From an uncultured Ignavibacteriaceae bacterium (GTDB lineage: Bacteria; Bacteroidota; Ignavibacteria; Ignavibacteriales; Ignavibacteriaceae), in contig CAWEUT010000025.1 in assembly GCA_963812305.1 (NCBI GenBank), positions 8,930-72,929 of the forward strand: a stretch of 64,000 nt of DNA, read 5' to 3'. This document shows positions 2 through 47,276 of this stretch, in pieces. Within the stretch, counting starts at the first letter, position 1; each line of letters opens with the position of its first letter. Below the pieces are notes generated by a model. The model saw only the letters and a program-made list of their open reading frames with translations. It was not told where the DNA came from and searched no databases. The position numbers and the translations under genes were made by a program.

Positions 2-166
2 ATTGGTATTTCGCATTTGATAGAAGTTATTGAACAACTTAATCAGGGCAATGGTAAATTAGTTTTTACTAACCTTGATCCAACAATTGAAAAAACATTT
101 TCTATTATGGGATTGTTTCAGTTTGCCGATAAAGCCGATACTGTAGAGGCTGCTTTAAGTGCTTGA
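2..166 (+). CDS. STAS-domain protein (anti-sigma-factor antagonist family), C-terminal fragment; the 5' end is outside the window
   Basis: The frame is open from the window edge to TGA at 164-166 and translates IGISHLIEVIEQLNQGNGKLVFTNLDPTIEKTFSIMGLFQFADKADTVEAALSA. This is the typical C-terminal region of SpoIIAA/RsbV-like STAS proteins. It is absent from the ORF track because no start codon lies in the window. Confidence 0.5.
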   Translation: MGISHLIEVIEQLNQGNGKLVFTNLDPTIEKTFSIMGLFQFADKADTVEAALSA

Positions 167-10630: not shown

Positions 10631-11788
10631 ATGAACATGAATACTATACCACCAAAAATACTAGTAGTTGATGACGAGCCTGATCTGGAATTACTTATTA
10701 ACCAGAAATTCAGGAGAGAGATTAAAGAAAATAAATACAATTTCATTTTCGCAAACAATGGTGTTGATGCTCTCAATAAATTAAATGACGACCCTGAAAT
10801 TGAGTTAGTCCTGACAGATATCAATATGCCTGAGATGGATGGTCTAACTCTACTAACTAAAATTAAAGAGTTAAAAAATCCTCTGATGCATTCCGTTATA
10901 GTATCTGCTTACGGTGATATTCTGAACATAAGAACTGCTATGAATGGCGGAGCATTTGATTTTATTGTAAAACCAATCGACCTTACCGATCTGGAAATCA
11001 CTATTAAAAAAGCAGTGGATAATCTTGCTACTTTTAAAAATGCACTGAAATCAAGAGATGAATTGATGGTTGTTCGTAAAGAACTGGAAGAAGCCAGAAC
11101 ACTTCAGCTTTCAATGCTTCCAAATTCTACTCCTCAAATCAGCGAACTTGAATTTGCCGTGTTTATGAATACCGCAAGCGAAGTTGGTGGAGATTATTAT
11201 GATTTTTCATTTAAAGTAGATGGCTCATTAAATATTGCTGTCGGAGATGCAACAGGACACGGTATGAGAGCCGGTATTATGGTTGCAATAATGAAAGCTC
11301 TTTTTATTTCTGATTCAGCAGAATTGGACCTAGTTGATTTCTTTAGCAACTCCAATAAAACTATAAAAGCTTTGAATCTCGGACGAATGATGATGGCATT
11401 TACAGTATTGAACATAAAAAACAATCAGGTTCAGTTTGTTAATGCAGGAATGCCTCCAATCTTTATTTATAAAAAATCAGACAACACCGTTACTGAATTT
11501 GAAACACAAGGCATGCCGCTTGGTGCTATTTCAGAATCCACTTTTAAGATAAATAAGTTTGATGTTGAAACCGGCGATGCAATATTAATTCTAAGTGATG
11601 GATTACCTGAGTTGAAGAATGAGAAGCATGAACAATATGATTATGCAAAAGTGAAAGATGAATTTAAGTCTGTTGCAGATAGGACCCCGAATGATGTAGT
11701 TGAATATTTAAAATCCTCTGCATCTGAATGGGCAAATGGTGTAGAGCCTGATGATGATGTTACGTTTGTGGTAATAAAAGTAAAATAA
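10631..11788 (+). CDS. Response regulator with a SpoIIE/PP2C phosphatase output (REC-PP2C)
   Basis: The ATG directly abuts the kinase stop codon (taaATG). REC motifs: KILVVDDEPD, LTDINMPEMDGLTLL, VSAYGD, VKPID. These are followed by ARTLQLSMLP and the SpoIIE motifs GGDYYDF, GDATGHGMRAG, NAGMPP, LSDGLPE, DDDVTFVVIKVK*. Confidence 0.9.
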   Translation: MNMNTIPPKILVVDDEPDLELLINQKFRREIKENKYNFIFANNGVDALNKLNDDPEIELVLTDINMPEMDGLTLLTKIKELKNPLMHSVIVSAYGDILNIRTAMNGGAFDFIVKPIDLTDLEITIKKAVDNLATFKNALKSRDELMVVRKELEEARTLQLSMLPNSTPQISELEFAVFMNTASEVGGDYYDFSFKVDGSLNIAVGDATGHGMRAGIMVAIMKALFISDSAELDLVDFFSNSNKTIKALNLGRMMMAFTVLNIKNNQVQFVNAGMPPIFIYKKSDNTVTEFETQGMPLGAISESTFKINKFDVETGDAILILSDGLPELKNEKHEQYDYAKVKDEFKSVADRTPNDVVEYLKSSASEWANGVEPDDDVTFVVIKVK

Positions 11789-21416: not shown

Positions 21417-24400
21417 ATGAAAAAATTAAAACACATTTCTCTATTACTAGCTTTTTTTACAATTAGTTTAGCTGCCCAGATGGATGATATTGAATTTCGA
21501 CGATATACCACATCTGATGGGCTATCAACCAACTGGAATATAAATGCAATTGCTCAAGATAAAGATGGTTACATATGGATTGCTACTTCAGAGGGATTGA
21601 ACAGATTCGATGGATATGATTTTAAAGTTTTCCGATATGATCCGCTTAATAGTAACTCATTGAGAACAAATAATGTTACTTCTTTATTGATAGATAGCAA
21701 AAATAGATTTTGGCTTGCCTCTTTCGGAGCACCAAACGGGGGAATTAGTCAATGGAATCCGAAAACGGAAACCTTCATTAATTATGTGCCGGAAAATAGT
21801 GATACGAATTATTTATTTCCCTGGGCTCTTACAAAATTATATGAAGATAGATCGGGAAATATATGGGTTGGTACGGTGGCAGGATTAGATATTTTTAACC
21901 CGGAAACAGGTAAGTACTTACATTATACTGACAAGAAATCAGGATTCTCTTCTTTAGTGCATAATTATATAACTGCAATAATTGAAGATTCAAGGGGAAA
22001 TTTGTGGATTGGTACTTTGGATAGCGGACTAGTAAAATATAATCCTGCAACTAAAGAATTTCAGCGATTTAAATATGAAAAGAGTAATATAAAAAGCTTA
22101 TTGTCAAATCATATTAATTCAATATATGAGGATCCGGATGGTACGCTATTCATTGGAACTAATCTTGGCGGATTACATACTTATAATTACTCCTATAATT
22201 CAATAGTTCGACTGCCGGATAATTCGACCGACTTTCAAAATTTAAGAGCCCCAGTTAGTAAAGGACCGGTGTTCGGACAAAATGGTGGAATTGCTATTAT
22301 CAAACGAACTGGGGACGGAAGCTTGTGGCTTGGAACTTCGAACGGTGGAATAAAGGTTTATGATAATAATTTTTCAAGATTTAATTTGTTCATAAATGAT
22401 CCATTAGATAATACAAGCTTAAGTGACGACTATGTAACAACAATATTTGAAGATAATCAAAATAATATTTGGCTTGGAACGATTTCGCGTGGATTAATGA
22501 AAGTTGTGCCATCTCAATCTTTATTTAAACCAAATGGAAATAATCTAGATTTATTAAACACATTAAAGGAGAAACAAATTCGTGCGATATATGAAAGCAA
22601 CAATGGAAATTTATGGATCGGAACAATAGATGGGCTACTACTTGAGTATGATCCGCAAAAAAAAATAATTAAAGAATTTAAATCCGACCTTACCACTGGT
22701 TCAAAGCATAAACTAAGCGGTCCTGACATCGATGCAATTTATGAAGACAAGGAAGGAATTATCTGGATCGGCACGTTCAGTGGTATAGATAAATATGATC
22801 CTAAAAAAGGTACAGTAAATCATATTCAAGTTAAATATCAGAATGATATAAATGATTTTAATTTAGATATTGAAGCTATTATTGATGCAGATAATGAAAA
22901 TCTTTGGATTGCCGTTTGGGATGCAGGTATATTTAAATTTAATAAGAAGACAACTGTAATTGAATATTATGGTTGGAAGGATTTTGATTCAACAAGTTTA
23001 TCCAATAACCAGGTATTTACTCTTTTCAAATCAAATAAGAGAGATTTGTGGGTGGGTACTTCCGATGGACTAAATTTATTTGATAACTCATCTAAAATTT
23101 TTAAACATTTTTTAATGGGCACAACTGTCAGTTCCATTCAAGAAGATAAAAAAGGAAATATATGGGCTGGAACAAACAATGGACTTTTTAAGCTTGATCT
23201 TATATCTAATATTATTACTCACTATACAAAAGAAAACGGATTGCCTAGCAATTTAATAGGTGGAATTTTAACTGATAAGGAAGATTATCTTTGGATTGGC
23301 ACGTCTGCCGGACTAGTTCGATTTAATCCCAGAGACAAAACATTTCTAAAGTATGATGAATCTGACGGCGCTCAATCAGATCTCTATGAAACCGGTAATT
23401 CATACTTCAAAACAAAAGAGGGACTTTTATTATTTGGAAGTTTCGATGGTATAACTGTATTCGATCCTGCTAAAATAAGACATAGTACTGACCGCCCAAA
23501 GTTTAATAACAGGTAGTTAACATTTTTAATAGCGGGAGTAATTCAGATGTCTTCAGCGCCAAATTATTGGAGAAACCATATTTCAAATTCCTTAACGCTA
23601 AACCATACCGAAAACGAATTAGTATTTGACTATTTGGGCATTCACTTTACTCATTCTAAACGGAACACTTACCAATATAAGCTTGAGCCATATGACCAGA
23701 ACTGGCAACCAATTACCTATCAGAGATCAGCAAGATATACAAATTTAGCCCCGGGGGATTATACTTTTAAAGTTAAAGCTTCAAACAGTGACGGTATTTG
23801 GAGTGAAAAATATGCTTCAATAAACATTACTGTACTTCCCCCGTGGTGGCAAACCTGGTGGGCTTATGCTCTTTATCTTTTGGGATTCGTGAGTTTACTT
23901 GGTGGAGTAAGAAAAGTTGAATTAGATAGAAGAAGAGAAAAAGAAAATAAAAAGCTTCTGCAGCTTGAGAATGATAGAAAAACAAAAGAGCTTGAGGAAG
24001 CACGACAGCTTCAGCTATCTATGCTTCCAAAAGAACTTCCCAAACTTCCTAATCTTGATATTGCAGTGTATATGAAAACTGCAACAGAAGTTGGCGGCGA
24101 TTACTATGATTTTATTGTAGGTCTTGATGGGACGCTTATTGTCGCAATTGGTGATGCAACGGGACACGGAATGAAGGCAGGTACAATTGTCTCAATGGTA
24201 AAAGCACTCTTTGCTTCCGGCGGTTCAAGACTGGAGATGAAAACATATTTTAATCAAAGCAGTGATGCACTTAAAGGAATTGAGTTAGGCAGATTAATGA
24301 TGGCATTTATGATGCTAAAAGTAAAATCAAACAAAATTGAGATTGCCAATGCCGGTATGCCTCCATTATTTATTTACAGACAAAAAACAAAATCAGTTGA

Positions 24401-24694
24401 AGAAATAATGTTAAAAGGAATGCCATTAGGAGCAATTAAAAATTTTCCGTATGAGATAAAAGAAACAGAAATCTCTACCGGTGATACGTTGCTATTGCTG
24501 AGCGATGGATTACCCGAATTGCAGAACGCACATAAAGAACAGTATGGTTATCCCGAATAAAAGATTCATTTGAAAAAGTTGCAGAAAAAAAATCGGAAGA
24601 AATTATTAATTACTATAAGAATGAATCTTCAAAATGGGCAAGTGGTAATGACCCGGATGATGATATTACGTTTGTAGTTATAAAAGTTAAGTAA
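21417..24694 (+). pseudogene. Reg_prop beta-propeller / Y_Y_Y sensor - TM - SpoIIE phosphatase; at least four frame disruptions as assembled
   Basis: Fragments 21417..23516 and 23547..24560 are in the same frame, separated by TAG 23514-23516. Homology runs through three frames across 23495-23590. The C-terminus (KDSFEKVAEKKSEEIINYYKNESSKWASGNDPDDDITFVVIKVK*, stop 24692-24694) is in another frame after about 24555. Y_Y_Y (LVFDYLGIHFTHSKRNTYQYKLEPYDQNW...YTNLAPGDYTFKVKASNSDGIW), a TM helix and SpoIIE motifs are all present. Confidence 0.8.
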
Positions 24695-24717: not shown

Positions 24718-24834
24718 AGAGGTTGGACTAAACTGATTAGTCTAACGCAGGAACTCAACTCCAACCTCTTCTCTTACAAAGAGAAGGGGAATTTTGATTC
24801 TGGTTTAAAAGTCCCTCTCTTTTTAAGAGAGGGA
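24718..24834. repeat. Three consecutive strong hairpins in the spacer after the 21417..24694 gene
   Basis: The three hairpins are agaggttgg(24718-24726)/ccaacctct(24761-24769), cttctct-tacaa-agagaag (24768-24786), and tccctctct-tttta-agagaggga (24812-24834). Confidence 0.65.
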
Positions 24835-32325: not shown

Positions 32326-33465
32326 ATGAAAGCAAAATCAATAAAAGGTAAATCACCGGAAGAAATTAAAAATGAATTAGCAAAAAGTATTGCTGATGGA
32401 TTTACACCGACATTGGCGATTATTTTTTTATCTGTAAATCTGGATCGAGATTCTATCTGCAAAATATTTGATGAGAAAGGGATTACAATCTTTGGATCAA
32501 CTGCTGCAGGAGAATTTATTAATGGAGAATTGGAAAAAGAATCGGCCGCAATTCTTTTACTTAATATGGACAAGAATAATTTTTTTGTGCACATTGAAGA
32601 AAGAAGTGGAAAAAGTAAATTGAGAACTGCTGCAGAAATCAGTAAAAAGGGTTTAGATAGATTTTCAAATCCTGCTTATCTTGTTGCAACAGGAGGTTCA
32701 ATCATTGATGGCGAAACAATTATCAGCGGAATAAATAGTACTTCAGGAAAAAACTCAATTGTATATGGAGGTATAGCCGGTGACGAGTTGCGTGGAACTG
32801 AAACACATTTATTTACAAATAAAAAATCCACCCAGGATGGAATAATTGCATTAATTGTAGATCATGATAAAATACAATTGACCGGTTTAGCATCACATGG
32901 CTGGAAACCAATTGGAACAATAAGAACGATTACAGATTGTGAAGATTGTAAAGTTTATACGATCGATGATGAACCTGCACTTGATATTATGACAAAATTC
33001 CTTGGTATTTCTTTAGAAGATTATCCAGGAGATGAATTAATAAATAATGTAGGAAATCTGGATCCCATACAGTTGATGAGGGATGATGGAACCACAATAA
33101 CCAGGGCTATCAGAAATCTTAATAAAATAGAAAGATCAATACTACTTGCGGGACCAGTAACGCGCGGAACAAAAATCAGGTTTTCTTTACCTCCGGATAA
33201 TAATAATATACAGCAGGTTACCGAGGAGTGTAGATATTTAAAGGAAATATTTCAACCTCAAGCAGAGGCAATGATAATGTTTTCCTGCATTGGACGATAT
33301 TATTCTTTGGGTCCATTAGTGTCATCTGAGATTGAAGAAGTTAAAGATGTTTGGGATTCTCCAATGGCGGGGTTCTTCTGTTATGGCGAAATCGGAAATT
33401 CTTTAAAAGGCAAGCAGGAATTTCATAATAATACTTGCTGCATCGTAGTGATGAAAGAAAGATAA
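32326..33465 (+). CDS. Stand-alone FIST-domain sensor protein (FIST_N + FIST_C), paralog 1 of 4
   Basis: 379 aa. N-terminus MKAKSIKGKSPEEIKNELAKSIADGFTPTLAIIFLSV. C-terminus PMAGFFCYGEIGNSLKGKQEFHNNTCCIVVMKER, a GEI...FHN.T ending typical of FIST_C. It aligns over its full length with the three downstream paralogs. Confidence 0.7.
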   Translation: MKAKSIKGKSPEEIKNELAKSIADGFTPTLAIIFLSVNLDRDSICKIFDEKGITIFGSTAAGEFINGELEKESAAILLLNMDKNNFFVHIEERSGKSKLRTAAEISKKGLDRFSNPAYLVATGGSIIDGETIISGINSTSGKNSIVYGGIAGDELRGTETHLFTNKKSTQDGIIALIVDHDKIQLTGLASHGWKPIGTIRTITDCEDCKVYTIDDEPALDIMTKFLGISLEDYPGDELINNVGNLDPIQLMRDDGTTITRAIRNLNKIERSILLAGPVTRGTKIRFSLPPDNNNIQQVTEECRYLKEIFQPQAEAMIMFSCIGRYYSLGPLVSSEIEEVKDVWDSPMAGFFCYGEIGNSLKGKQEFHNNTCCIVVMKER

Positions 33466-33513
33466 TGTCATCCTGATTATTATGAAAATAAAATTAGTAA
33501 ATGTAATTAAACT

Positions 33514-34314
33514 ATGATAAAATTCTTCCGTAACATCCGAAAAAAACTTTCAGCTGAAAACAAAGCAGCAAGCTATCTCCGTTATGCTATCGGTGAAATT
33601 GTTCTTGTAGTTATTGGAATACTCATTGCTTTGCAGATTAATAATTGGAATGAAGCGAGAAAAGAAAGAAACAATGAAATAAAATATCTTAAAAATCTAA
33701 AACTAGATTTAAAAACTGATTTAGTTAATTTGGATTCAATGATAGTTGATCGGCGTAATAAAATGTTGTCAGCGAACACATTATTAACGCTTCAACCACC
33801 AAAAACAATAGACCAATTAAAATCGTTTGATAGACTATTATGGAAAGTTTATGGCTGGACAAGTTTTACACCGCGAACAATTACGTTAGATGAATTGATT
33901 AGCTCCGGAAGTTTAAACATTATTAAAAATGATTCTATTAAGTTCTATTTGTTAAGTATTAAAGAAAAAAATGAAACGATAGTAATTTATCGTGAGCATA
34001 TGAGACATGAATACGATAACTACTTATATGATCGCACTTGGCCTATTCTTGAAATCAGACCCTTTTTGGATTTTGAAAAAACAATAACGCAAAAAACAAG
34101 AATTGATATTGAAATATCAGAGGATAAAAGAAAACAACTTGCGTCTCAAGCAGCAATCTTCTTAAATGATATGACTATCAGAAATGGTCTCAGATTAGCG
34201 GCAATGAATAACTTTGGTATTCTTAATTTATATGAATCACTTTATGCAGAAATACAAAAACTAATTAAATTTATTGATGAAGACATAGATGAAGAGCCAT
34301 TAAAAAATTCATAA
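33514..34314 (+). CDS. N-terminally anchored membrane protein, DUF6090-like
   Basis: The N-terminus MIKFFRNIRKKLSAENKAASYLRYAIGEIVLVVIGILIALQINNWNE matches, from memory, the signature N-terminus of DUF6090 family proteins of Bacteroidota. The rest of the protein is helical. It interrupts the FIST array. Confidence 0.55.
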   Translation: MIKFFRNIRKKLSAENKAASYLRYAIGEIVLVVIGILIALQINNWNEARKERNNEIKYLKNLKLDLKTDLVNLDSMIVDRRNKMLSANTLLTLQPPKTIDQLKSFDRLLWKVYGWTSFTPRTITLDELISSGSLNIIKNDSIKFYLLSIKEKNETIVIYREHMRHEYDNYLYDRTWPILEIRPFLDFEKTITQKTRIDIEISEDKRKQLASQAAIFLNDMTIRNGLRLAAMNNFGILNLYESLYAEIQKLIKFIDEDIDEEPLKNS

Positions 34315-34320
34315 GAAAGT

Positions 34321-34356
34321 ACAACCTGCAGTTGGGTGGCATTAAAAGAAAAATGA
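34321..34356 (+). other. Relic 3' end (last ~11 codons + stop) of a lost FIST paralog
   Basis: acaacctgcagttgggtggcattaaaagaaaaatga aligns with the 3' end of FIST2 (acaacggtaagctgggttgcattaaaagaaaaatga) and encodes ...WVALKEK*. It is followed by the same 22-nt spacer (tctaatagaaggactgttgtaa) that separates FIST2/3 and FIST3/4. Confidence 0.75.
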
Positions 34357-34378
34357 TCTAATAGAAGGACTGTTGTAA

Positions 34379-35539
34379 ATGAAAGCAAAATCAATTAAAG
34401 GAAAATCACCGGAAGAAATTAAAACCGCTTTGGCTGAAAGTATGTCAGATGCCCACCTGCCGGATGGGCAGGGATTCAAGCCCACACTAGCCATCATCAT
34501 TTTAAGCCACAATGAAGATACTGAACAACTCCAATCAATTTTTGAGGCAAAAGGTATTGCGATTTTCGGAATTACAGCACCCCAAAAATTTACCGAACAA
34601 GGTATGGAAACTGATGATATTGTAGCATTGCTAATGGATATGAAACCGGAATATTTCAGAATTGTACTAAACGATTACGGGGAGTCGTCTGCGTATGAGG
34701 CCGGACACCAGGCGGGAATAACCGGAAAGAACTTATTTGCGAATCCCGGCTTCATCATTTCACCAATAGATTTCAAAATGTCTGGCGATGAATTGATTAG
34801 GGGATTAACGGATGCGGCAGGCCAGGGTGTCACCATTATGGGCGGTGTGGCTGGTAACCCAGATGATTTCTCAGGTATTTTATTCACAAATACCTTATCC
34901 AGTAAAGGGGGTTTACTTGCACTCATTATTGATCAGGACAAAATTTTGATAAATGGATTGGCAGTTTCAGGATGGAAACCGGTTGGGACAACAAAAAAAA
35001 TCACAAAAAGTGAAGGCTCCTGGGTTTTTACGATTGATAATGAACCGGCAATGAATGTCATTCAGCGGTTTTTGGGAGATGAAATAATAATTTCTACCAA
35101 CCAGGCGAGCGGGCTGCTTCCTACTGACCTTGGCTATCCTTTACAATTTGAGAGAGCATCAGGAAATGTAATAATGAAGCCAGCTTTATTTTTCAACACT
35201 GCTAATCAATCAGTAATGATAGGAGGTGAAGTGAAGGAAGGTGACCTTTTTCGTTTTTCCCTGCCACCGGATTTTGATGTGATTGATAAAGTGGTGGAAA
35301 GTACAAAGACCATCAAAGAAAAGGATATGCCAGAGGCAGATGCCATGCTCATTTTTTCCTGCGTTGGCAGGCTGGGCACATTTGGGCCCATGATTACAAC
35401 AGAAATAGAAGGTCTGGCAGCAACGTGGAATAAGCCTATGCTGGGCTTTTTTTCATTGGGTGAATTTGGAAAACTGGATGAGGGCCGCTGTGAATTTCAC
35501 GGAACAACGGTAAGCTGGGTTGCATTAAAAGAAAAATGA
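34379..35539 (+). CDS. Stand-alone FIST-domain sensor protein, paralog 2 of 4
   Basis: 386 aa. MKAKSIKGKSPEEIKTALAESMSD... to ...PMLGFFSLGEFGKLDEGRCEFHGTTVSWVALKEK*. It is visibly GC-richer than its surroundings. Confidence 0.7.
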   Translation: MKAKSIKGKSPEEIKTALAESMSDAHLPDGQGFKPTLAIIILSHNEDTEQLQSIFEAKGIAIFGITAPQKFTEQGMETDDIVALLMDMKPEYFRIVLNDYGESSAYEAGHQAGITGKNLFANPGFIISPIDFKMSGDELIRGLTDAAGQGVTIMGGVAGNPDDFSGILFTNTLSSKGGLLALIIDQDKILINGLAVSGWKPVGTTKKITKSEGSWVFTIDNEPAMNVIQRFLGDEIIISTNQASGLLPTDLGYPLQFERASGNVIMKPALFFNTANQSVMIGGEVKEGDLFRFSLPPDFDVIDKVVESTKTIKEKDMPEADAMLIFSCVGRLGTFGPMITTEIEGLAATWNKPMLGFFSLGEFGKLDEGRCEFHGTTVSWVALKEK

Positions 35540-35561
35540 TTTAACAGAAAGAATGTAGTAA

Positions 35562-36746
35562 ATGAAAGCGAAAACAATCAAAGGAAAATCTACAGAAGAA
35601 ATCAGTTCTGCATTAACTGAAAGCATGTCCGACGGATACAAGCCAACTTTAGCTGTTGTGTTCTTATCTGTAAAACAGGACAGAGAAGCTATTTCCAAAT
35701 TACTCGACGATAAAGGAATTCAGATCTTTGGTGCTACCACTGCTGGCGAATTTATTGATGACGAAATTGAAGAAGGCAGTATTGTCATGATGTTGCTCAA
35801 CATGAATCCCGCTTATTTTAAAATAGAATTTCTTGAAACAAGCCAGAAGTCCGCCTTCGAAGACGCAGCCAAACTAGGCATTATCGGAAAAGAAACCTTC
35901 ACTAACCCTGCGTTTATAATTGCAAACAGTGGAGTGTCCTTAGACGGGGAACCATTTGTTGAAGGTATCCTACAAGGGTTTGGAAAACCTTCCTCGTCGG
36001 AAGACAGTGAAGTAACCATATTCGGAGGTAAGGCTGGAGATGATTTGGCACTTGAAGCAACATTTGTTTTTACCTACGGAAAAAGTAGCGACTGCGCACT
36101 TGTAGCACTCATTATTGATGAAGATAAAATAGATGTTAAAGGTATAGCAACTTGTGGCTGGAAGGCTATTGGCACCACAAAAACAGTTACTAAAAGCGAA
36201 GGTAATATTGTTTATACCATCGACGATAAACCAGCATTGGATGTGTTACTAAATTACCTTGGCGTTGAGATAAAGCTGGATGGCAACAAGGAAATCGTGA
36301 CATTCCTAAACTCCTGGTATTATCCATTACAAGTGGAACGTGAAAATACAGATCCTGTAATACGTACAGCTATGTTTGCCAATAGTGAGGACCGATCACT
36401 TATTTGTTCCGGAAAAGTACCGCAAGGGTCAAAAATTAAATTTTCGCTGCCGCCAGATTTTGATTCTATCGATACCGTAGTTGCAGAGTGTAAAAGCATT
36501 AAAGACAATGCACAGCAGCGAGCTGATGCATTGATTATGTTTTCCTGCGTGAGCAGATATTTATCTTTTGGGATGGTAATAAAAGAGGAGTTAGAACAAG
36601 TACAAAAAATTTGGGATGCACCTATGGCAGGTTTTTTTTCCTATGGCGAATATGGAAAATCCTTGTCTAGCGTAAAGGTTGGAAAGGCCGTTAAAAATGA
36701 TTATCATAATAATACTTGCTGCGTAGTGGCATTAAAAGAAAAATGA
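35562..36746 (+). CDS. Stand-alone FIST-domain sensor protein, paralog 3 of 4
   Basis: 394 aa, starting 22 nt after the previous stop. MKAKTIKGKSTEEISSALTESMSDGYKPTLAVVFLSV... to ...PMAGFFSYGEYGK...DYHNNTCCVVALKEK*. Confidence 0.7.
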   Translation: MKAKTIKGKSTEEISSALTESMSDGYKPTLAVVFLSVKQDREAISKLLDDKGIQIFGATTAGEFIDDEIEEGSIVMMLLNMNPAYFKIEFLETSQKSAFEDAAKLGIIGKETFTNPAFIIANSGVSLDGEPFVEGILQGFGKPSSSEDSEVTIFGGKAGDDLALEATFVFTYGKSSDCALVALIIDEDKIDVKGIATCGWKAIGTTKTVTKSEGNIVYTIDDKPALDVLLNYLGVEIKLDGNKEIVTFLNSWYYPLQVERENTDPVIRTAMFANSEDRSLICSGKVPQGSKIKFSLPPDFDSIDTVVAECKSIKDNAQQRADALIMFSCVSRYLSFGMVIKEELEQVQKIWDAPMAGFFSYGEYGKSLSSVKVGKAVKNDYHNNTCCVVALKEK

Positions 36747-36768
36747 TTTAACAGAAAGATTGTAGTAA

Positions 36769-37908
36769 ATGAAAGCAAAATCAATAAAAGGAAAATCCCC
36801 AGAAGAAATTAAAACAGCACTGGAACAAAGCATTGCTGATGGTTTTAAACCGACGCTTGCCGTTGTTTTTCTTTCTGTAAAACAGGACAGAACGGCCATC
36901 AGTAAATTGTTGGATTCGCATGGTATAGCCATTTTTGGAGCTACCACGAGCGGTGAGTTCATTGATGAAGTGACGGAAAAAGGAACAGTTGTGATGTTAC
37001 TGCTTGATATCAAAAGGGACCACTTCCAGATTTATCTCGATGATTTTCATGAAAAAAACTTCCGCGAAAGTGCATCGGGCATAGCTAAAAAAGCGAAGGG
37101 AATATTCCCGAAACCTGCATTCCTTATTTCCGGCTCTCACCTTGAAACGGATGCTGAGCAGTTGCTTTTTGGATTTGAAGATGTTGTGGGTAAAGATGTG
37201 AATGTTTATGGCGGCATGGCTTCCGATGATTACACATTCACAGAGCAGTTTGTTTTTACCAATGGTAAGGAAAGCAATCAGGGCATCGTTGCCCTGGCTC
37301 TTGATGAAGATAAAATCCTCATCAAAGGAAAAGCAACCTGTGGCTGGAAAGCTGTAGGAACAGAGAAAACAGTAACAAAAAGTGAAGGGAACCATGTTTA
37401 TACGGTAGATGATATTCCTGTATTGGATCTTACTGTAAAATATGGCGGGTTGAAAAATGTATCCCCTGACAATACCGGATTGATGCTTGAGATTGCTGCA
37501 AATCTGCCCTTGCAACTGCAGCGTGAAAAAGGTGATCCGGTCATGCGTCCCGGTCTCCTTGTTGACTGGAGCGACCGTTCTTTCTTTTGCAGCGGATCAG
37601 TCCCCCAAGGTTCGAAAATCAGATTCTCACTTCCTCCAGATTTTGATGTGATGGAAACCGTAATTAAGGGTGCCGAAGAATTGAAAAATACAGAAATGCC
37701 TGAAGCTGATACAATAATTGTATTTAGCTGTGCAGGCAGAATTCTCGTTTTTGGACCAATGATGAATATGGAGATTGAAGGGCTAAAAAAAATCTGGAAT
37801 GTCCCAATGGTGGGGATGTTCAGTAACGCAGAATTGGCAAGAGCAACCGGTGGTGATTTAGAAATGCACAACCTGACAACTTGTTGTGTTGTATTAAAAG
37901 AAAAGTAA
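36769..37908 (+). CDS. Stand-alone FIST-domain sensor protein, paralog 4 of 4
   Basis: 379 aa, starting 22 nt after the previous stop. MKAKSIKGKSPEEIKTALEQSIADGFKPTLAVVFLSV... to ...PMVGMFSNAELARATGGDLEMHNLTTCCVVLKEK*. Confidence 0.7.
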   Translation: MKAKSIKGKSPEEIKTALEQSIADGFKPTLAVVFLSVKQDRTAISKLLDSHGIAIFGATTSGEFIDEVTEKGTVVMLLLDIKRDHFQIYLDDFHEKNFRESASGIAKKAKGIFPKPAFLISGSHLETDAEQLLFGFEDVVGKDVNVYGGMASDDYTFTEQFVFTNGKESNQGIVALALDEDKILIKGKATCGWKAVGTEKTVTKSEGNHVYTVDDIPVLDLTVKYGGLKNVSPDNTGLMLEIAANLPLQLQREKGDPVMRPGLLVDWSDRSFFCSGSVPQGSKIRFSLPPDFDVMETVIKGAEELKNTEMPEADTIIVFSCAGRILVFGPMMNMEIEGLKKIWNVPMVGMFSNAELARATGGDLEMHNLTTCCVVLKEK

Positions 37909-37916
37909 ATTATAAA

Positions 37917-38889
37917 ATGAATCAAAAGCTTCAAAACATATTAAAAATTCTTGAGCAAAATCAAAACCTTTCTGCTGAGGAGAAGGAATCAGCATTAAAG
38001 GCTTTAAAGGATGCTGACAAAGAATTTGAAATAACAGCCTTTAAACTTGAACGTACAGAGAAAGTAAAAAAAACGACAGCGATTTTGCTTGAAGAAACAA
38101 TTGAGGAACTTGAACAAAAGCGAAAAGCTGTTGAAGAACAAACTAAAATAATTCACGCAGAGAACGACAGGAAATCCAAAGAGCTTGAGGATGCAAGACA
38201 ATTACAATTGGCAATGCTTCCTCGTGAACTTCCAAGAGTTGCTAATCTTGATATTGCTGTGCATATGAGAACAGCAACAGAAGTTGGTGGTGATTATTAT
38301 GATTTTCATGTCCAGCCCGATGGTACTTTGACTGTTCTTGTCGGTGATGCGACGGGTCATGGAATGATGTCGGGAATGATGGTATCAATTATGAAATCGT
38401 TTTTCATTTCTAATCGATCGAATCTGGAATTGAAACAATTTTTTGAAAACTGTAACAACTCTATTAAAGATATGCACCTTGGACAGATTAATGATGGCTA
38501 CAATGGGTGTTCAAATTACTTCTGAAAAAGTTATTGCTACTAATGCTGGAATGCCATCACTGCTTTACTTTAGAAATAAATCTAAGAAAGCCGGAGAGTT
38601 TGTTAGCAATAATTTGCCCTTGGGTGGAATGAAGAATACAAATTATTCACTAAAAGAGATCAGATATGAAAAAGGCGATACATTGTTACTTATGAGTGAT
38701 GGATTTGCTGAATTAATGAATGAGAAAAATGAACAATATGGATATGAAAGAGTGAAGAAGGAATTTATGTCTGTTGCACAAAAAAGTCCTAATGAAATAG
38801 TTGAACATCTTAAAAACTCAGCATCTCAATGGATTAACGGAATAGAGCCCGATGATGATGTAACGTTTGTGGTAATAAAAATTAAATAA
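37917..38889 (+). pseudogene. Sensor-less coiled-coil - SpoIIE phosphatase; a single inserted base as assembled
   Basis: ATG 37917 lies 8 nt after the FIST4 stop; the track ORF starts earlier, in frame, at 37881. The N-terminal ~95 aa is only predicted coiled coil (LERTEKVKKTTAILLEETIEELEQKRKAVEEQTKIIHAENDRKSKELEDARQLQLAMLP). Fragments are 37881..38525 and 38443..38889. Compared with the paralog at 42811-42860, aaagatatgcaccttggaCagattaatgatgg carries one extra C at 38484. SpoIIE motifs are intact and the protein ends DDDVTFVVIKIK*. Confidence 0.8.
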
Positions 38890-38933
38890 ATAATCACCCC
38901 GACTTTAGGTATTGTGTTAAAATATGTATGACG

Positions 38934-39021
38934 TCACACCGAGCGAAGTCGAGGTGTGAAATGATCTTAAAATGTCAGTCTTCGACGGAGTTTATCCCGA
39001 TTTATCGGGGCTCAGACTGAC
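38934..39021. repeat. REP/MITE-like palindromic elements in the spacer after the 37917..38889 gene
   Basis: The elements are tcacacc-gagcgaagtcga-ggtgtga (38934-38959) and gtcagtct...cccgatttatcgggg...agactgac (38974-39021). They are flanked by caccccgactttaggt (38896-) and cagcctctaaagagcgtggc (39040-), the same layout as in 5909-6144 and 15172-15436. Confidence 0.65.
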
Positions 39022-39177
39022 GAATTGTATTTTTCACCCAGCCTCTAAAGAGCGTGGCTATTAAGAGGAAAAAAACATTGTTGCAGCAAACCCATGAGCC
39101 TTTATAACCTGTAGTCAGGTTCGGGTTAAGACTAGTTGGATATTTTAAGAACTCAATCAATAAAAGATTTGTGAACT

Positions 39178-42100
39178 ATGAACGATAAAAAAGAAAAATT
39201 ATTAAACGATACATACCAGAAATGGATTCATACAAGTTTGTATGATTTACCATTGGATGCAATAAATGATTTTGTTGATCCTAAGATAATGGGATACGGT
39301 ACTGCTGTTGATGAAAAAGTTCTTTCCATAACTGACTATCGTAAATTGTTAAATACACAAAGAAAACAGGCTGTTGGTCTTGATATGAGTTTTGAAATTA
39401 CTCCTGTTTTCAGAAGTATATCAAACAAAGAAGATTCTGCAATTTTTGTTGATGAAATCACTGTTTCAATAATTGTAAATAAAAATAAACAGGGACTCTT
39501 TTTAAGACTCACCACTATTTTAGATTACATTGATAGTAAATGGATAGTGGTCCATTGGCATGGTTCTATACCGACTGAAACAACTGCTGAATCCGATACC
39601 TGGCTTGTAAATGAATGGAAAAGAAAAAATGAAGAACTTCAAAAACTTGTTGATGAAAAAACTTCAGAGCTATTGAATAAAAACCGTGAGCTTGAAATTG
39701 AAGCCTCATTGGAAAAAGTTCGCACAATTGCAATGGGGATGAGGAAACCAGATGATATGCTGGATGTGTGCAAGACAATTTCACTTCAACTCCATTCATT
39801 GGGTGTAAAGGAAATTCGTAATGTGCAAACAGCTATCTTTTATGAGCAACTCGGCACTTATATGAATTATGAATATTATGCAAAGCACGACAAGACCTTT
39901 ATTACAGAAACTTCATATACAAACCATGAAATGCATAAAGAATTTGCGGCAAAAATGCTGAGGGGCAAGGGAGAAACCTTTATCACACATATAAAAGGCG
40001 ATGACGTAAAAGACTGGATTGATTATCAAAAAACGACAAATGTTTTTATTGACAAGTATCTGGAAACTGCTTCTTCAGTTAACTATTATTGGTTTTCTCT
40101 CGGTCCAGTTGCACTTGGAATTTCAACATACCGCCCTTTAACAGAAGAAGGTATAAATCTATTCAAACGATTTGTAAAAGTGTTTGAATTGGCATATCAA
40201 AGGCACCTGGATATTGAAAAAGCTGAAGCTCAGGCAAGGGAAGCGAAGATAGAAACTTCGCTTGAAAGAGTGCGCGCAAGAACAATGGCGATGCAAAAAA
40301 GTGAAGAACTGAATGATGTAGTAATGACATTATTCGGTCAAATGAAAGACCTGGGAATTGATATTGATGGAATTAATATCAATATATTGATTGATGACCT
40401 AACCGGTTTTGAGTCCTGGTTTACAGCCCCTGGTTATACAAAAGCCGTTTGCCTGTATACTCCTTATTTCAACACCCCTGTAATGAATGATATTTTTAAT
40501 GCGGTTAAAAGCAAACAGGATCTTCTCAGTAAGATTTACCCGAAAGAAGAAAAAGACGCCTACTTCTCTTACCTATATGAACATACTGATTATAAAAACC
40601 TGCCGGATGAAAGAAAAAAAATGATCCTTGACGCTGAAGGCTGGTGCCTGTCTGTAGGACTTGCAAATAATATAGGCATCAGTATACATAGCTACACTGA
40701 TAGAACATTTTCTGAAAAGGAACATGATATTTTAAAACGGTTTGCCAAAGTATTTGAACAAACCTACACCCGTTTTCTCGATCTAAAAAAAGCAGAAGCA
40801 CAAGCAAGAGAAGCTAAGATAGAAGCTGCTTTGGAAAGAGTTCGTGCTGTTGCTATGAGCATGCACAAATCTGATGATATTATTAGTATTTGCGAAGTGT
40901 CATTCAAAGAGTTTCAAAAGTTGGGCTTTGATAACCTCCGGAATGCTATCATCCATATTCCAAATGACGAACAAAAATATTTCATGGATTATGACTATTC
41001 AGAATTTACCGGTGGCGCAATAACGAAAATTAAATATGGTTCACATCCCATTGTAGATGAATATCTGGAAAAAATCAGAATAGCCGAAGATGCCTATTTT
41101 GAAGTAGTCATAAATGAAAACCAGCTGGCAGGATGGAAAGACTTCAGAAAAGAATCCGGACAGCTGGATGATCCACGATTAGATGATGCAAGAGCACTTT
41201 ATTACTATCTCTTTTCCATCGGAATCGGTGATATCGGTATATCTACGTTTAGACCGATTGAGGACTCCCAAATTAAAATTCTTAAACGATTCAGAAATGT
41301 GTTCGATCTTGCATACCGAAGGTATAATGATATTTCACTTGCAGAAGCACAGACAAGAGAAGCTCAGATTGAAAGCGCGCTTGAAAAAATTCGTTCCCGA
41401 TCTCTTGCAATGCAAAAAAGTGATGAGTTGAAGGAAGTGATAACAGTGGTTATTATGAAACTGCAGGAGCTGGGTATGGCAATGGAAGGTCGTGTAGCTG
41501 GAATCTACACTTTTGAAGATGATTCAAAAGATCATATTCAGTGGGTAGCTTCACCTCAATTTACTTCTACATTGAGCATCCATGTTCCTTATTTTGTTCA
41601 TCCCATTATTGACGAATTCATTGAGTTCCACGAAAAGAGAGGTATACTCAATAAAATATATTCTCGTGAATTAAAAGATAGTGCATTCCGGATTATGTAT
41701 CAGCTTCCAGAATTGAGAGACAATCCAGAAAGTGAAAAGGAATGGGTTTTTGGAGCAAAGGATTATTCGTTGAGTGTTGCATTTGAAGACTATTCCGCAG
41801 TTGGTATTGCCAGCTTCCCCGCAAAATTATTTACTGAAAATGAGATAGCAATTCTGAAAAGATTTGCCAAAGTTTTTGAACAAGCATATATCCGTTTTCT
41901 CGATCTCCAAAAAGCCGAAGCACAAGCCAAGGAGGCTCATATAGAAGCAGCATTGGAAAGAGTGAGAAGCAGAACAATGGGTATGCAAAAAAGCGAAGAA
42001 CTGAAAGAGGTAATTCGGGTTGTTTATGAACAGTTCGTACACTTAAAGATCAGTGTTGACCATGCAGGTTTTGTAGTTGATTATAAACCAAAAGGCGATT

Positions 42101-43234
42101 GGCATTTTTGGATCGCTGATGAGCAGGACATTCCTTCTAAAATAACTCATCCATATTTTGAGTCTGTTTGGGCAAATCAATTTAATGAAGCAAAAGAAAA
42201 AGGTGCAGACTTCTTTGCCACCAATTTAAATTTTGAAGAAAAGAACAAATTTTACAATGAACTTTTATCACACGTTAACGGGTTACCGGAAGCATCAAAA
42301 GATTTTTATTTGAGCTGCCCCGGCCTTGCAATATCAACAGTGTTGTTAGAGAACGTTAGTCTGTACATCGAGAATTTTTCGGGTATTCCTTACTCAGATG
42401 AAGAGAATAACACGCTTATGCGATTTGGAAAAGTATTCCAGCAAACCTATACACGTTTCCTTGATTTACAAAGGGCAGAAGAACAGAATAGAATTATACA
42501 AGCAGATAATGACCGTAAAACAAAAGAGCTTGAAGATGCACGTCAGCTACAACTATCTATGCTTCCAAAAGAACTTCCTCAACTTACCTCATCTGGATAT
42601 TGCTGTTTATATGAAAACTGCAACAGAAGTTGGCGGAGATTATTATGATTTTAATGTTGATGCTTATGGCACTTTAACTATTCTTGTTGGTGATGCTACA
42701 GGACACGGAATGATGTCGGGAATGATGGTTTCGATTATGAAATCGTTTTTCATTTCTAATAGAAACAATATTGAGTTAAAACAATTTTTTGAGGATGCAA
42801 ACAATTCAATAAAAGATATGCACCTTGGAAGATTAATGATGGCTACAATGGGTGTTCAAATTACATCCCAAAAATTAATCGCTACAAATGCCGGAATGCC
42901 ATCTTTACTTTATTTTAGAAATAAATCGCAAAAGGCTGGTGAGTTTGTTAGTCATAATTTTCCATTAGGAGCAATGAAAGAAACAAAATATTTGTTGAAA
43001 GAAATTAACTATGAGAAAGGTGATACACTATTGCTGATGAGTGATGGATTTGCAGAGTTAAAAAATGATAAGAATGAGCAATACGGTTATGACAGAGTAA
43101 AAAAAGAATTTCTGTCTGTTGCACAAAAAAGTCCGAATGAAATAGTTGAACATTTAAAAAACTCAGCATCCGAATGGATTATTGGAGTAGAACCTGATGA
43201 CGATGTTACATTTGTTGTAATAAAAGTAAAGTAA
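39178..43234 (+). pseudogene. Cytoplasmic NTF2/SnoaL-like domain + five tandem ~185-aa modules + SpoIIE phosphatase; a single inserted base as assembled
   Basis: Fragments are 39178..42648 and 42398..43234. ...LPKELPQL(T)SSGYCC versus the expected LPQLPHLDIAVYMKTATEVGGDYYDF; there is one extra A near 42586. The linker F(A/V/R/G)KVF(E/D)..Y.R(F/H/Y)(L/N)D(L/I)..AEAQ(A/T)(R/K)EA.IE(A/T/S)(A/S)LE(R/K)(V/I)R(A/S)....(A/G/S)M(Q/H)KS(E/D)(E/D) recurs at about 40216, 40786, 41338 and 41908, with a shorter first copy at 39693 and a last copy at 42469 that leads into the phosphatase. Confidence 0.8.
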
Positions 43235-43420: not shown

Positions 43421-43735
43421 ATGGAAATAAATGTTGACGCCCGCGAAGACTTCACGATTATAAAGTTTAACAAAAGTAAACTATTAGGCACAGAGGCAGT
43501 AGAGTTTCAAGATTCTGTTCTTAATACATTAGACAAAGGCATACACTCTATTGTTGTTGATCTTTCTACTGTAGAGTATGTTACAAGTTGGGCAATAGGA
43601 ATGCTCGTGCACGCCTTTACAACCTCAAGTAACCGTAATGCACAACTTAGTTTGGTCGGAGTAACTCAGAGGGTTAAGGATATTTTAGCAAAGGTTAAAC
43701 TGGATACAATATTTTTGATTCGAGAATCCATTTAA
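43421..43735 (+). CDS. STAS-domain protein (SpoIIAA/RsbV-type anti-sigma-factor antagonist)
   Basis: 104 aa. ...SIVVDLSTVEYVTSWAIGMLVHAF... aligns with the DLSxVxF(M/I)DS(S/T)GLG phosphorylation segment of SpoIIAA/RsbV and keeps the Ser. The C-terminal part LVGVTQRVKDILAKVKLDTIF is also STAS-like. Confidence 0.75.
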   Translation: MEINVDAREDFTIIKFNKSKLLGTEAVEFQDSVLNTLDKGIHSIVVDLSTVEYVTSWAIGMLVHAFTTSSNRNAQLSLVGVTQRVKDILAKVKLDTIFLIRESI

Positions 43736-43957: not shown

Positions 43958-45547
43958 TTATTTTGTTCTTGTGAACTCAATTCTTCTGTTCTTTTGTTTT
44001 CCTTCTTTTGTCTTGTTATCAGCAATTGGTTTGTCTTCACCATAGCCAACTAGTCGATATTCTATTAGCATCGATACCTTTCGTAACTAACCAATCTTTA
44101 ACAGATTCAGCTCTTGCTTCAGAAAGTTTTTGATTGCTCTTTGCACTACCATCACTATCAGTATGTCCGCTTATTTCAACAGAAATATCTGAATAGGTCT
44201 GTAATGTTTTTAGGAGCTTTTTTTAACTTATCTTCTGATTCAGGTTTAATTGTTGCTTTGTTAACATCGAAGTAAATATCTTCCAGTACATATACGAACA
44301 CCAATTTTAACAACATCATCTTCAGCATTTAATGGATCTGTACCGCGTTTAACTTCTGTACCATCATCAACTGTACCATGCATCAGTATCTACCTTTAAA
44401 GGATTGGTTTTGTGGGTAAGAACTTCTTCAGAATCACTTAATCCATCACCATCTGTATCAGCTTTTAGTGGATTGGTTTTGTATTTTAGAACTTCGTCAC
44501 CATCAGTTAAACCGTCACCATCTGTATCAGCTTTTAATGGATTTGTTTATACTGGTAATAACTTCATATCCATCATTTAATCCGTCTTTATCTGTATCAG
44601 CAACTAATGGATCAGTTTTGTACTTGTTTACTTCTTCACCATCATTCAAACCGTCAGCGTCTGTATCAGCAATTAAAGGATTGGTACCTGTTGATTTAAC
44701 TTCATCATAATCTGTTAAACCGTCTAAATCAGTATCAACCTTTAAAGGATTTGTTTTGTAGGTTAGATATTCTTCACCGTCTAATAATCCATCACCATCC
44801 GTATCAGCAACTTCAGGATTTGTTCCGATTTTTCCTTCATCACATTTACCTAAACCGTCCATATCTTTATCGGCTTTACAGTTTTCACCAACAAAGGTTA
44901 GACCTAATGAAGCATTTAGATAAGAATCCCAAATATCTTCTGATAGCACCTCTGTATGAATCAAGATCATAAGTTGAAGACATTGCACCACCAAGAGCAA
45001 AATCTAACCATACTCTTTCACTAAGGGCAAATTCAGCACCAATACCAGCAGGAATAATTGCAACCCAGCCATCTTCTTCAACTGAGCCTGGAGAAACAAG
45101 ATCAGGTTTTGTATCAACGCTAAAATTCATAACTCCGCCGCCAACATAAAAGTAAGGATTCCATCCCTTTAAATCCCAAGGACTAACTTTAAAACGTAAG
45201 GAGATTGGAATTATTGTGGTTTCATATTCACCAAAATCACTTCCTTCTTCCTGCATAGCAACACCGGCATATTTACCGTAACCGCCGTTTATTGATAATT
45301 CTAATGCTTTTGATAATTCGAAACCGAAGAAAGCTTCACCTAAATATGATGTTTTGAACCAGTCGAATGATGTATTATCATTTCCACTGAATCCTAAATT
45401 TGCAAATTCGTTTTCCGGGAATAATATACTTCCACGAATACCGAATTTTGTTCCCCAATCCTTAAACTGAGCGTAGTTTTGTTGACTCATTGCAACTAAA
45501 CCGAGCACTACAAACAAGTAAATTAGTTTTTTCATTTTTTTCCTCAT
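43958..45547 (-). pseudogene. OmpA-family outer-membrane protein: N-terminal beta-barrel + thrombospondin type-3-like Ca-binding repeats + OmpA C-terminal domain; many frame breaks as assembled
   Basis: Track fragments are 44885..45547 (signal peptide plus barrel) and 44527..45000 (DTDGDGLLDGEE / DTDLDGLTDYDE / DTDADGLNDGEE / DTDKDGLNDGYE). By hand translation 43958-44530 continues with more TSP3 repeats and an OmpA domain (DIYFDVNKATIKPES, EISGHTDSDGS, SEARAESVKDWLVTKGIDANRIST, VGYGEDKPIADNKTKEGKQKNRRIEFTRTK*). This stretch is split by indels near 44050, 44222 (a T7 run), 44295, 44385, 44550 (two A-run deletions) and about 44960. Confidence 0.8.
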
Positions 45548-45664: not shown

Positions 45665-47276
45665 TTACTCTGTTAAGTAATCTGCATCACAAGGAATTTC
45701 AGGCTTAACCAGTAGAACTTCCTCTTTAAGCAAGGACACCTGACCTGCAGGTTGTGATTTACGCTTAACAACGTATTTTTTAAGAGTGTAAGAAACCGGA
45801 ACAATTCCAGCAGTTTTTGCTTTGCTGTGGTATGCAGCGAGAGAAGCTACTTTTTTGAGAATGCTTTTAGGCACAACTTCTTTTGTATTATCAATTCTTA
45901 AGACTACATGCGATCCGGACACTGATCTTGCATGAAACCAGAAATCATTTTGCTTTGCAAATCTTGTTGTTAATAAATCATTATTTACAGAATCTTTACC
46001 AACAAATACGTGATACTTCTTTTCGATTAAATAATGCTTGAATTTTGAACTTATATCTTCGGTGTAATTTTGTTTTTCTTCGTCTTTTATTTTCAATTCT
46101 TTCATAATCTTGTTTATATCCTCTAAAGTTGGATTTTTATCTATTTGCTCTTGATATGATTGTAATTTTTCATACTCCTTTTTGGTGCTTAGAATATAGC
46201 TTACTCGATTTTTCAAAATTGATTTTGCTGTCACGGGATTTTTCAAAATATCTATCAATATTTTTTTTAGGGGATAACTTAGCATCCAATTTAATTTTAA
46301 CTTTTGAATCAGGGGAATAAATATCATCAACTTCAATTTCTGAAAGTCCGGGATGTATTTTATTTAAGTTTATTAAAAGCAGATTTGCAATTTTATTTAA
46401 TTGTTCTTCCTGCGATCCTTTCTCAATAACAACAAGCAGATTATTTAATCGGGAAGAAATTTTCTTTAACTCTCTATCTAAAAATGATATTATTTTCTTT
46501 AGTTTGTTGTTTTTTTCTTCGTACTGATATTTCTTAATTAAAAATTGATTGAAGGCTTCAATCATTGTGTCAAATAAATGTTTCTCAAATGTTGAATATA
46601 TTTTTAATGAATTAAATCCGATATGCACTTCGCCTGAATTATCATCAACATAAACTGCGGGAGCTTCCGTAAAAATATCCTGAAGAACATTTAATAATAT
46701 TTCAGAATCACTCTCATTACTTTGTTTTCTGGCATTTACTTCGTTTTCAATCTCTCGTCCGATGAATTTATATCTATTCCTGATTTCATCTATACTTTTC
46801 CCTTCAATAAAATCAGATTCAGGAATATTGAAACTTTTGTGAAAAAATTTATTTTCAAATTCCTGCTTGAACGAAATTAAATTTTCTTCACTTTCATTTT
46901 TAAATGAGATAAGATTTTTTGAATTGAAAAATAGATTAGTGTATTTACCGCGTATTGCAAAAATTAAATCACCCTCATCTGTAGTGATTTTTATTATTCG
47001 ATCATCCGAAGCTATCAAAACTTCTTTGATGGTTTTGCTTATAAGTTCATTAAAGAATTCTATCGTATTTTTTTTTGCACGTGAATATTTGGTCCTGATG
47101 TTAATGAAAGGTTCGGAATGATTAACCGAGAATTCAATAAATAATTCTTCGGCTCCATCTAACTGTACAATCAAACGATCTTTATCCTGGGAAAAAATAC
47201 TTACAATTTTTTTTCCAGCTAGAACAGAATTTAGCTCGAGTGTTAATCTGTTTAGATAATAATAGCTTTTGTACAT
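45665..47276 (-). pseudogene. NFACT-family protein (FbpA/RqcH-like N-domain + DUF814/NFACT-R); one frameshift as assembled
   Basis: Fragments are 46170..47276 (N-terminal MYKSYYYLNRLTLELN...) and 45665..46336 (C-terminal ...DFWFHARSVSGSHVVLR...AAYHSKAKTAGIVPVSYTLKKYVVK, the DUF814 signature). The frames join near 46185-46200. Confidence 0.7.

Follow-up and report, generated by a model that had tools for sequence, protein, structure and literature searches.

To our knowledge, FIST domains are among the least understood of the widespread bacterial sensor domains, the members studied so far being of the NosP type only, as single proteins that work with kinases or cyclic di-GMP enzymes. One of these, the stand-alone FIST protein NosP, binds NosK, a kinase without a sensor that is encoded beside it, and sets in trans the rate at which NosK autophosphorylates (PMC12570481, PMC11237717, PMC8846402), and CdpA of Vibrio cholerae is a covalent FIST-EAL fusion in which FIST controls a signalling enzyme (PMC8846402). 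Control by a separate partner is also described for RsbT-RsbU, where the partner activates a PPM phosphatase through the N-terminal domain and coiled-coil linker of the latter; that module is found on histidine kinases and GGDEF enzymes as well, and has been called an 'exchangeable toolkit' (PMC12143880). Here we analyse a stretch of 64,000 nucleotides (nt; "the window") from an uncultured Ignavibacteriaceae bacterium (assembly GCA_963812305.1, contig CAWEUT010000025.1, positions 8,930 to 72,929), in which four genes for free FIST proteins lie upstream of a gene for a SpoIIE phosphatase of the PP2C type. A preliminary description of this DNA had proposed that the FIST proteins regulate the phosphatase in trans, and had known of no characterised FIST-PP2C pairing. 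Our literature search, combining FIST with SpoIIE, PP2C, STAS or partner-switching, found no paper describing such a pairing, although NosP provides a precedent in kind (PMC12570481). We consider it rather probable that the locus is the Ignavibacteria form of an operon widespread in the Bacteroidota and Ignavibacteriota, in which a bank of FIST proteins controls in trans an enzyme bearing a common N-terminal module, the output being a phosphatase here and usually a kinase.

The FIST genes (FIST1 to FIST4), with the spacers between the last three, are arranged as follows (aa, amino acids).

32326-33465, plus strand: FIST1, 379 aa; Pfam FIST 88.8 bits, FIST_C 68.6 bits
34379-35539, plus strand: FIST2, 386 aa; Pfam FIST 67.6 bits, FIST_C 54.2 bits
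35540-35561, plus strand: spacer between FIST2 and FIST3, 22 nt, TTTAACAGAAAGAATGTAGTAA
35562-36746, plus strand: FIST3, 394 aa; Pfam FIST 103.7 bits, FIST_C 85.5 bits
36747-36768, plus strand: spacer between FIST3 and FIST4, 22 nt, TTTAACAGAAAGATTGTAGTAA, one base different from the preceding spacer
36769-37908, plus strand: FIST4, 379 aa; Pfam FIST 96.3 bits, FIST_C 55.1 bits

The assignment of the four paralogs to FIST was borne out by a Pfam scan, in which all exceeded the gathering cut-offs of both families (23.2 bits for FIST, PF08495; 28.5 bits for FIST_C, PF10442), with 68-104 bits for FIST and 54-86 bits for FIST_C. A local FIST profile run against the six-frame translation found these four FIST genes, and no others, in the window. 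The AlphaFold2 model of FIST4 (predicted local distance difference test score, pLDDT, 84.8; predicted template-modelling score, pTM, 0.86) had the FIST fold, its top matches in the PDB being the FIST domain of FBXO22 (E value 2e-11, template-modelling score 0.52-0.59); by sequence, a search of the PDB returned no bacterial FIST structure and FBXO22 alone, at an E value of 0.16. The preliminary description had further held that FIST is normally fused to output domains. This did not stand, as the best 120 homologs of FIST4 (83-100% identical) all consist of FIST and FIST_C without other domains; judged by these relatives, FIST proteins of this clade normally stand alone.

Pairwise identities of 41-50% in protein and 57-64% in DNA mark FIST1 to FIST4 as old paralogs, and against these whole-gene values their first 45 nt are 78-96% identical. 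The near-identical protein termini quoted earlier for the four are correct, as are the equal length of the two 22-nt spacers and the distance of 8 nt from the FIST4 stop to the ATG of the phosphatase gene at 37917. Across 221 FIST proteins of all subtypes from related loci, conservation peaked in the N-terminal ten residues (0.89; mean 0.62) and was likewise well above the mean in the C-terminal nine, so the conserved termini are a feature of the whole clade. They could be a docking surface, part of the structural core, or handles for recombination.

The phosphatase (hereafter PP2C) has two parts.

37917-38156, plus strand: N-terminal helical module of ~80 residues (MNQKLQNILK...LERTEKVKKTTAILLEETIEELEQKRKAVEE), residues 1-80 of the PP2C
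38157-38889, plus strand: linker helix and SpoIIE/PPM phosphatase domain, frameshifted; Pfam SpoIIE 20.5 and 78.8 bits on two fragments

The gene previously described as a SpoIIE phosphatase at 37917-38889 matched SpoIIE in both its halves, and its reading frame proved to be split by one extra base at 38483-38485, the 973 nt holding two open reading frames (ORFs), 37917-38525 and 38443-38889. The SpoIIE motifs GGDYYD, GDATGHG, SDG and DDDVT can be read in the translations of the fragments, and in the intact ortholog from the related locus L001 the SpoIIE family (PF07228) scored 107 bits over profile positions 1-191 of 192. Against the full Pfam-A library, the PP2C matched SpoIIE and, weakly and below threshold, DUF5938 on its N-terminal fragment, with neither RsbU_N nor PAS detected. 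Its N terminus was predicted to form a helix at residues 3-14 and a single continuous helix at 20-100 (pLDDT >93), consistent with the coiled coil of ~95 aa noted earlier. The N-terminal module corresponds to no Pfam family and occurs once in the window.

Relatives of this locus were collected from two directions. Scanning the FIST alignment against one genome per species yielded 80 FIST-seeded loci, from Ignavibacteria, Bacteroidales, Chitinophagaceae, Flavobacteriaceae, Saprospiraceae, Balneolaceae and others, and in 75 of them the gene after the array was assessed. An array comprises as many as seven FIST genes and in most cases at least two, some loci having one FIST gene before a kinase; the distance to the next gene is usually 0-20 nt. 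What is encoded there is a HisKA/HATPase_c kinase in 59 of these 75 loci and a SpoIIE phosphatase in nine, the phosphatase loci being nearly all from Ignavibacteria or Melioribacter.

Residues 1-80 of the PP2C align to residues 1-80 of the kinases and phosphatases that follow FIST arrays (62-177 bits), in an alignment nearly invariant over ...FKL(D/E)RTEKVK(K/R)TTAILLEETIEELEQKRKA...; past the module, the proteins diverge where the catalytic part begins, into the H-box helix of the kinases, the linker of the phosphatases, or a repeat domain. With the 85-aa module as query, a word-index search for homologs gave short fragments almost exclusively and revealed no architectures; an exhaustive phmmer search of 1.84 billion representatives took its place. 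The family so defined comprises 223 clusters, in which the module sits at residue 1 with few exceptions. Classified outputs among the best 150 module proteins were 44 kinases and 14 SpoIIE phosphatases; Pfam searches of 46 long module proteins without a classified output revealed no further output type (GGDEF, for example), and these proteins are probably truncated by contig ends or composed of unannotated repeats.

Seeding by the module alone removes the bias towards FIST. Among 70 metagenome loci gathered in this way, each with at least 400 nt of upstream DNA, a FIST gene was found upstream in 65 (within 400 nt in 52, farther away in 13), and all seven loci of the PP2C type have FIST at 0-13 nt upstream. 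A FIST gene thus adjoins a co-oriented enzyme without a sensor of its own in 68/75 FIST-seeded and 65/70 module-seeded loci, with a gap of 8 nt in the window. The FIST-PP2C adjacency itself is conserved: it recurs in the nine FIST-seeded and seven module-seeded phosphatase loci, in L171 and L172, and in L090, where an RsbW-like kinase, STAS, SpoIIE, three FIST genes and a 1625-aa module-SpoIIE protein occur together. The idea of regulation in trans is strengthened by this comparison, because the same ~80-residue module stands at residue 1 of the kinase or phosphatase that follows a FIST array. FIST identity, conserved adjacency and shared module all lend support to the earlier proposal; for the predicted physical link, we propose the N-terminal module as the candidate receiver or docking element.

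The operon consists of a bank, variable in size, of free cytoplasmic FIST paralogs (four here), followed within 0-20 nt by one output enzyme, whose nearly invariant helical module of ~80 residues is predicted to run on, in one long helix, to the catalytic domain; here a SpoIIE/PPM phosphatase has taken the place of the HisKA/HATPase_c kinase that is the output in most genomes. In the mechanism that we propose, each FIST paralog would bind a ligand of its own and then attach in trans to the helical module at the N terminus, probably a coiled coil in dimeric form. This contact would shift the state of the helix or dimer and so turn the phosphatase on or off, resembling the action of NosP on NosK and of RsbT on RsbU, and the phosphatase would then dephosphorylate the STAS protein encoded at 43421-43735. 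Most likely, the phosphatase feeds a STAS partner-switching network, of which FIST-PP2C would be one input branch beside the ~ten SpoIIE phosphatases of the same island with covalently fused sensors. Competition between alternative inputs, as first suggested for the four FIST proteins, would fit the variable composition of the arrays.

The preliminary description had counted four tandem FIST genes; all four are present, but the array is broken between FIST1 and FIST2 by two features.

33514-34314, plus strand: DUF6090 gene, 266 aa, between FIST1 and FIST2; Pfam PF19578 64.7 bits
34315-34356, plus strand: relic of a FIST 3' end (ESTTCSWVALKEK and stop), directly after the DUF6090 stop and in frame; a 22-nt spacer-like stretch follows to 34378, before FIST2

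Positions 34315-34378 match the FIST2 3' end plus its spacer at 49 of 64 nt and the equivalent part of FIST3 at 48 of 64. Lying after DUF6090, this relic and spacer indicate an earlier FIST gene, apparently replaced or truncated, and so lost, on the arrival of DUF6090. The DUF6090 gene, which is probably outside the signalling module, occupies the same position in L001, L004 and L172; at the equivalent position in the related arrays of L007 and L018 no ORF was called. Among strains with FIST4 98-100% identical, the FIST genes number two (L005, L171), four (the window, L001, L004) or five (L172). FIST1 is joined to FIST4 through a spacer of 22-24 nt in the two-gene strains (L005, 6838-9139; L171, 66-2369), and L172 (1213-8140) has an extra FIST gene of a fifth subtype, 385 aa, 5' of DUF6090. 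From these comparisons, FIST arrays appear to gain and lose units through recombination at the conserved ends and spacers.

The subtypes differ in spread. Orthologs of FIST1 with 96-99% identity occur in close relatives only (69% in L007), whereas for each of FIST2, FIST3 and FIST4 other classes or phyla contain orthologs of 80-94% identity: those of FIST2 are 90-94% identical in L027 (Bacteroidales) and L066, those of FIST3 80-87% in loci of Chitinophagaceae and Saprospiraceae, and those of FIST4 69-93% across 80 species genomes. FIST4 is the most conserved subtype, and it is usually the one that adjoins the output enzyme. The GC content at third codon positions (GC3) is 0.23 in FIST1, like the rest of the window, and 0.38 in FIST2; for FIST2 to FIST4 together GC is 0.39-0.42 and GC3 0.33-0.38, against a GC3 of 0.19-0.31 in the other window genes sampled. 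Raised GC3, in combination with orthologs 80-94% identical in Bacteroidota, suggests that FIST cassettes have been exchanged horizontally between phyla. Wide-ranging orthologs of FIST2 to FIST4 and variation in copy number also fit a broader idea, which we put forward tentatively as a possibility: that FIST arrays of the Bacteroidota and Ignavibacteriota are banks of horizontally mobile, interchangeable plug-in ligand sensors docking on one short N-terminal helical receiver module, that this module is swapped between kinase and PPM-phosphatase outputs, and that one enzyme integrates several inputs.

Several observations weigh against control of the output enzyme by FIST in trans. No fused FIST domain was found in the best 150 module proteins, so 'Rosetta stone' support is absent. 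In five of the 70 module-seeded loci, the available upstream DNA contained no FIST gene, and in L087 (4948-7292) what lies upstream of a divergent module-PP2C of 323 aa is a gene for a secreted beta-helix protein, with no FIST. The NosP equivalog model NF041558 gave 28.7 bits for FIST4 and 47.5 bits for FIST1 against a cut-off of 450; sensing of heme or nitric oxide (NO) is therefore not to be assumed, and on these scores the FIST proteins of the window are distant homologs of NosP rather than NosP. Finally, the frame of the PP2C gene is broken both here and in L004, an independent assembly.

38483-38485, plus strand: 1-nt insertion disrupting the PP2C frame, located by comparison with L001 and L005

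The site reads GGACAGATT in the window and in L004, GGAC-GATT in L005 and GG-CAGGTT in L001. Programmed frameshifting at 38483 was considered and rejected, as a slippery sequence is absent and relatives lack the base. With its frame broken, the phosphatase branch may be inactive in this strain, or the extra base may be an assembly error.

Were the former the case, the locus could be decaying in this strain, with the FIST-linked PP2C a true pseudogene and the four FIST proteins orphaned or acting on another target. The insertion is shared by two sequences that differ at ~3% of positions over 21 kb (the window and L004) and does not lie in a homopolymer, and the array bears further scars in the DUF6090 insertion and the relic FIST end. 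Set against this, at least seven genes of the window are split that are intact in close relatives (L001, L172), namely those at 2080-5908, 7648-10630, 21417-24691, 37917-38889, 39178-43234, 44527-45547 and 45665-47276. Splits on this scale imply either an error-prone assembly of the window, probably from long reads, or widespread pseudogenisation, and the former is what counts against decay, as does the partly different set of additional frameshifts carried by L004. L001, L171 and L172 have an unbroken PP2C of 323 aa. The four FIST genes are intact here as well, and FIST2, FIST3 and FIST4 are highly conserved across taxa, whereas FIST1 has close orthologs only in near relatives. We therefore regard decay as doubtful, while giving it serious weight, and continue to favour a FIST bank that acts in trans on a module-bearing enzyme.

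How such a bank would act is a further question, and the main alternative to competitive inputs is that the FIST paralogs form one hetero-oligomeric sensor complex that passes a single integrated signal to the output. Most loci have at least two paralogs per array, tight gene spacing favours co-translation, and the strongly conserved N- and C-terminal segments of all subtypes offer a possible oligomerisation surface. A complex of fixed stoichiometry is nevertheless disfavoured by the free variation in array composition and copy number (two, four or five genes even in strains that are 97-99% identical), and some loci manage with a single FIST gene before the kinase; we judge the hetero-oligomer improbable. 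Very improbable, in our view, is mere co-transcription, with FIST acting elsewhere as a cofactor or heme carrier or an enzyme and the N-terminal helix serving only for dimerisation: the lack of fusions in the best 150 module proteins and the FIST-less upstream region of L087 would agree with it, but a FIST gene lies upstream on the same strand in 65/70 module-seeded loci whatever the output type, the module is essentially confined to a FIST context, and NosP, a relative that has been characterised, exerts a direct effect on the kinase beside it (PMC12570481).

The control of a module-bearing phosphatase by FIST in trans would be embedded in a larger island, for which three further features are relevant.

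2-166, plus strand: 3' end of a second STAS gene, at the start of the island; 89% identical to the STAS of L090
39178-43234, plus strand: giant phosphatase with SnoaL_3, repeat domain and SpoIIE, frameshifted here; catalytic domain ~83% identical in DNA to that of the FIST-linked PP2C
43421-43735, plus strand: STAS anti-sigma-factor-antagonist-like protein, 104 aa; NCBIfam TIGR00377 52.1 bits, below the cut-off of 53.45

The window contains 11 SpoIIE phosphatase genes, and the N-terminal parts of the encoded proteins are Reg_prop/Y_Y_Y, a receiver domain, SnoaL_3 with repeats, or unannotated. Bracketed as they are by two STAS genes, they have the layout of a multi-input partner-switching system. 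Orthologs of the STAS protein at 43421-43735 match Pfam STAS and STAS_2, and in L001 the ortholog directly follows the FIST-linked PP2C; the protein has a Ser/Thr motif, ...YVTSWAIG..., and is a likely substrate of the phosphatase. In L090 (1421-3866, compared with 2-166 and 427-2028 of the window), the STAS gene follows one for an RsbW-like HATPase_c_2 kinase. No HATPase_c_2 kinase of the RsbW/SpoIIAB type was found within the window, and by analogy with L090 one probably lies just upstream of it.

The unit ending with the PP2C was earlier proposed to begin at 24939. The gene starting there is closely preceded by a strong terminator-like hairpin at 24765-24789 (11-bp stem, then a T-rich tail; AATTTTGATT), which is the sole strong plus-strand site of this kind near the unit and fits that start. 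A scan for sigma-70 promoters was uninformative (79 sites, 75 expected). Downstream of the PP2C, the 288-nt intergenic gap at 38890-39177, absent in L001, contains the hairpins TCACACC...GGTGTGA and GTCAGTCT...AGACTGAC; it has no repeat within the window and no match in Rfam.

L004 and L172 carry the giant SnoaL_3-SpoIIE gene in unbroken form (1351 aa), and L001 lacks it. Its product has several repeats of ~190 aa (...LERVRxxAMxM...) and ends in SpoIIE here and in a histidine kinase in L002 (14255-21140). These same repeats, without a Pfam family, also stand between module and output in long module proteins (the downstream proteins of L026, L045 and L011). In L087, the module-PP2C is directly followed by a SnoaL_3 protein, and the module can exist there without an adjacent FIST array. 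Elsewhere in the island, 6566-11788 encodes GAF proteins and a GAF histidine kinase (frameshifted at ~8861-8985), with a receiver-SpoIIE phosphatase directly after them at 10631-11788. The core of the GAF kinase resembles the FIST-associated kinases, with 347 bits on their profile, and the pair looks like a two-component input to the same partner-switching island.

The locus offers a natural test of whether kinases and phosphatases can exchange regulatory modules that are linked through coiled coils, and its module provides a short, defined candidate docking surface. It also points to how uncultured Ignavibacteria might channel many signals into one partner-switching network. Should the plug-in sensor idea be true, nature would supply in these arrays an example of the proposed exchangeable coiled-coil toolkit, and FIST sensing would for the first time be connected with sigma-factor control by partner switching.

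Among known systems, the locus may be compared first with NosP-NosK/NahK of Pseudomonas, Legionella, Vibrio and Burkholderia, in which a stand-alone FIST heme/NO sensor is paired with an adjacent sensor-less histidine kinase. The two share a free FIST_N plus FIST_C protein beside a sensor-less enzyme, and most relatives of the window locus also have a short histidine kinase. They differ in that the output here is a SpoIIE/PPM phosphatase directed at STAS, not a kinase directed at a response regulator, in that up to seven tandem paralogs replace one, and in that the partner enzyme here has a specific N-terminal module. CdpA differs in having sensor and enzyme in one polypeptide, where here they are separate and no fusion occurs among the best 150 module proteins.

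In RsbT-RsbU and RsbQ-RsbP of the general stress response of Bacillus subtilis, as proposed here, a separate partner, a PPM phosphatase and a STAS anti-anti-sigma factor are combined; the candidate partner here is FIST, in contrast to the kinase-like RsbT or the hydrolase RsbQ. The N-terminal dimerisation domain of RsbU is a four-helix bundle. Unlike RsbU, the PP2C of the window is predicted to have a short helix and one helix of 80 residues, with no RsbU_N found. The stressosome proteins RsbRA-RD resemble the proposed arrangement in that several paralogous sensors feed one phosphatase branch, but those sensors belong to the unrelated STAS/globin family, form a large fixed complex and sequester RsbT. 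In kind, by these analogies, the locus is an auxiliary-sensor system like NosP-NosK and RsbT-RsbU; what is new is the pairing of FIST with a PPM phosphatase, for which our literature search found no paper, the tandem banks of paralogs in a large, well-conserved clade of FIST proteins, and an undescribed module of ~80 residues that marks a natural swap between kinase and phosphatase outputs.

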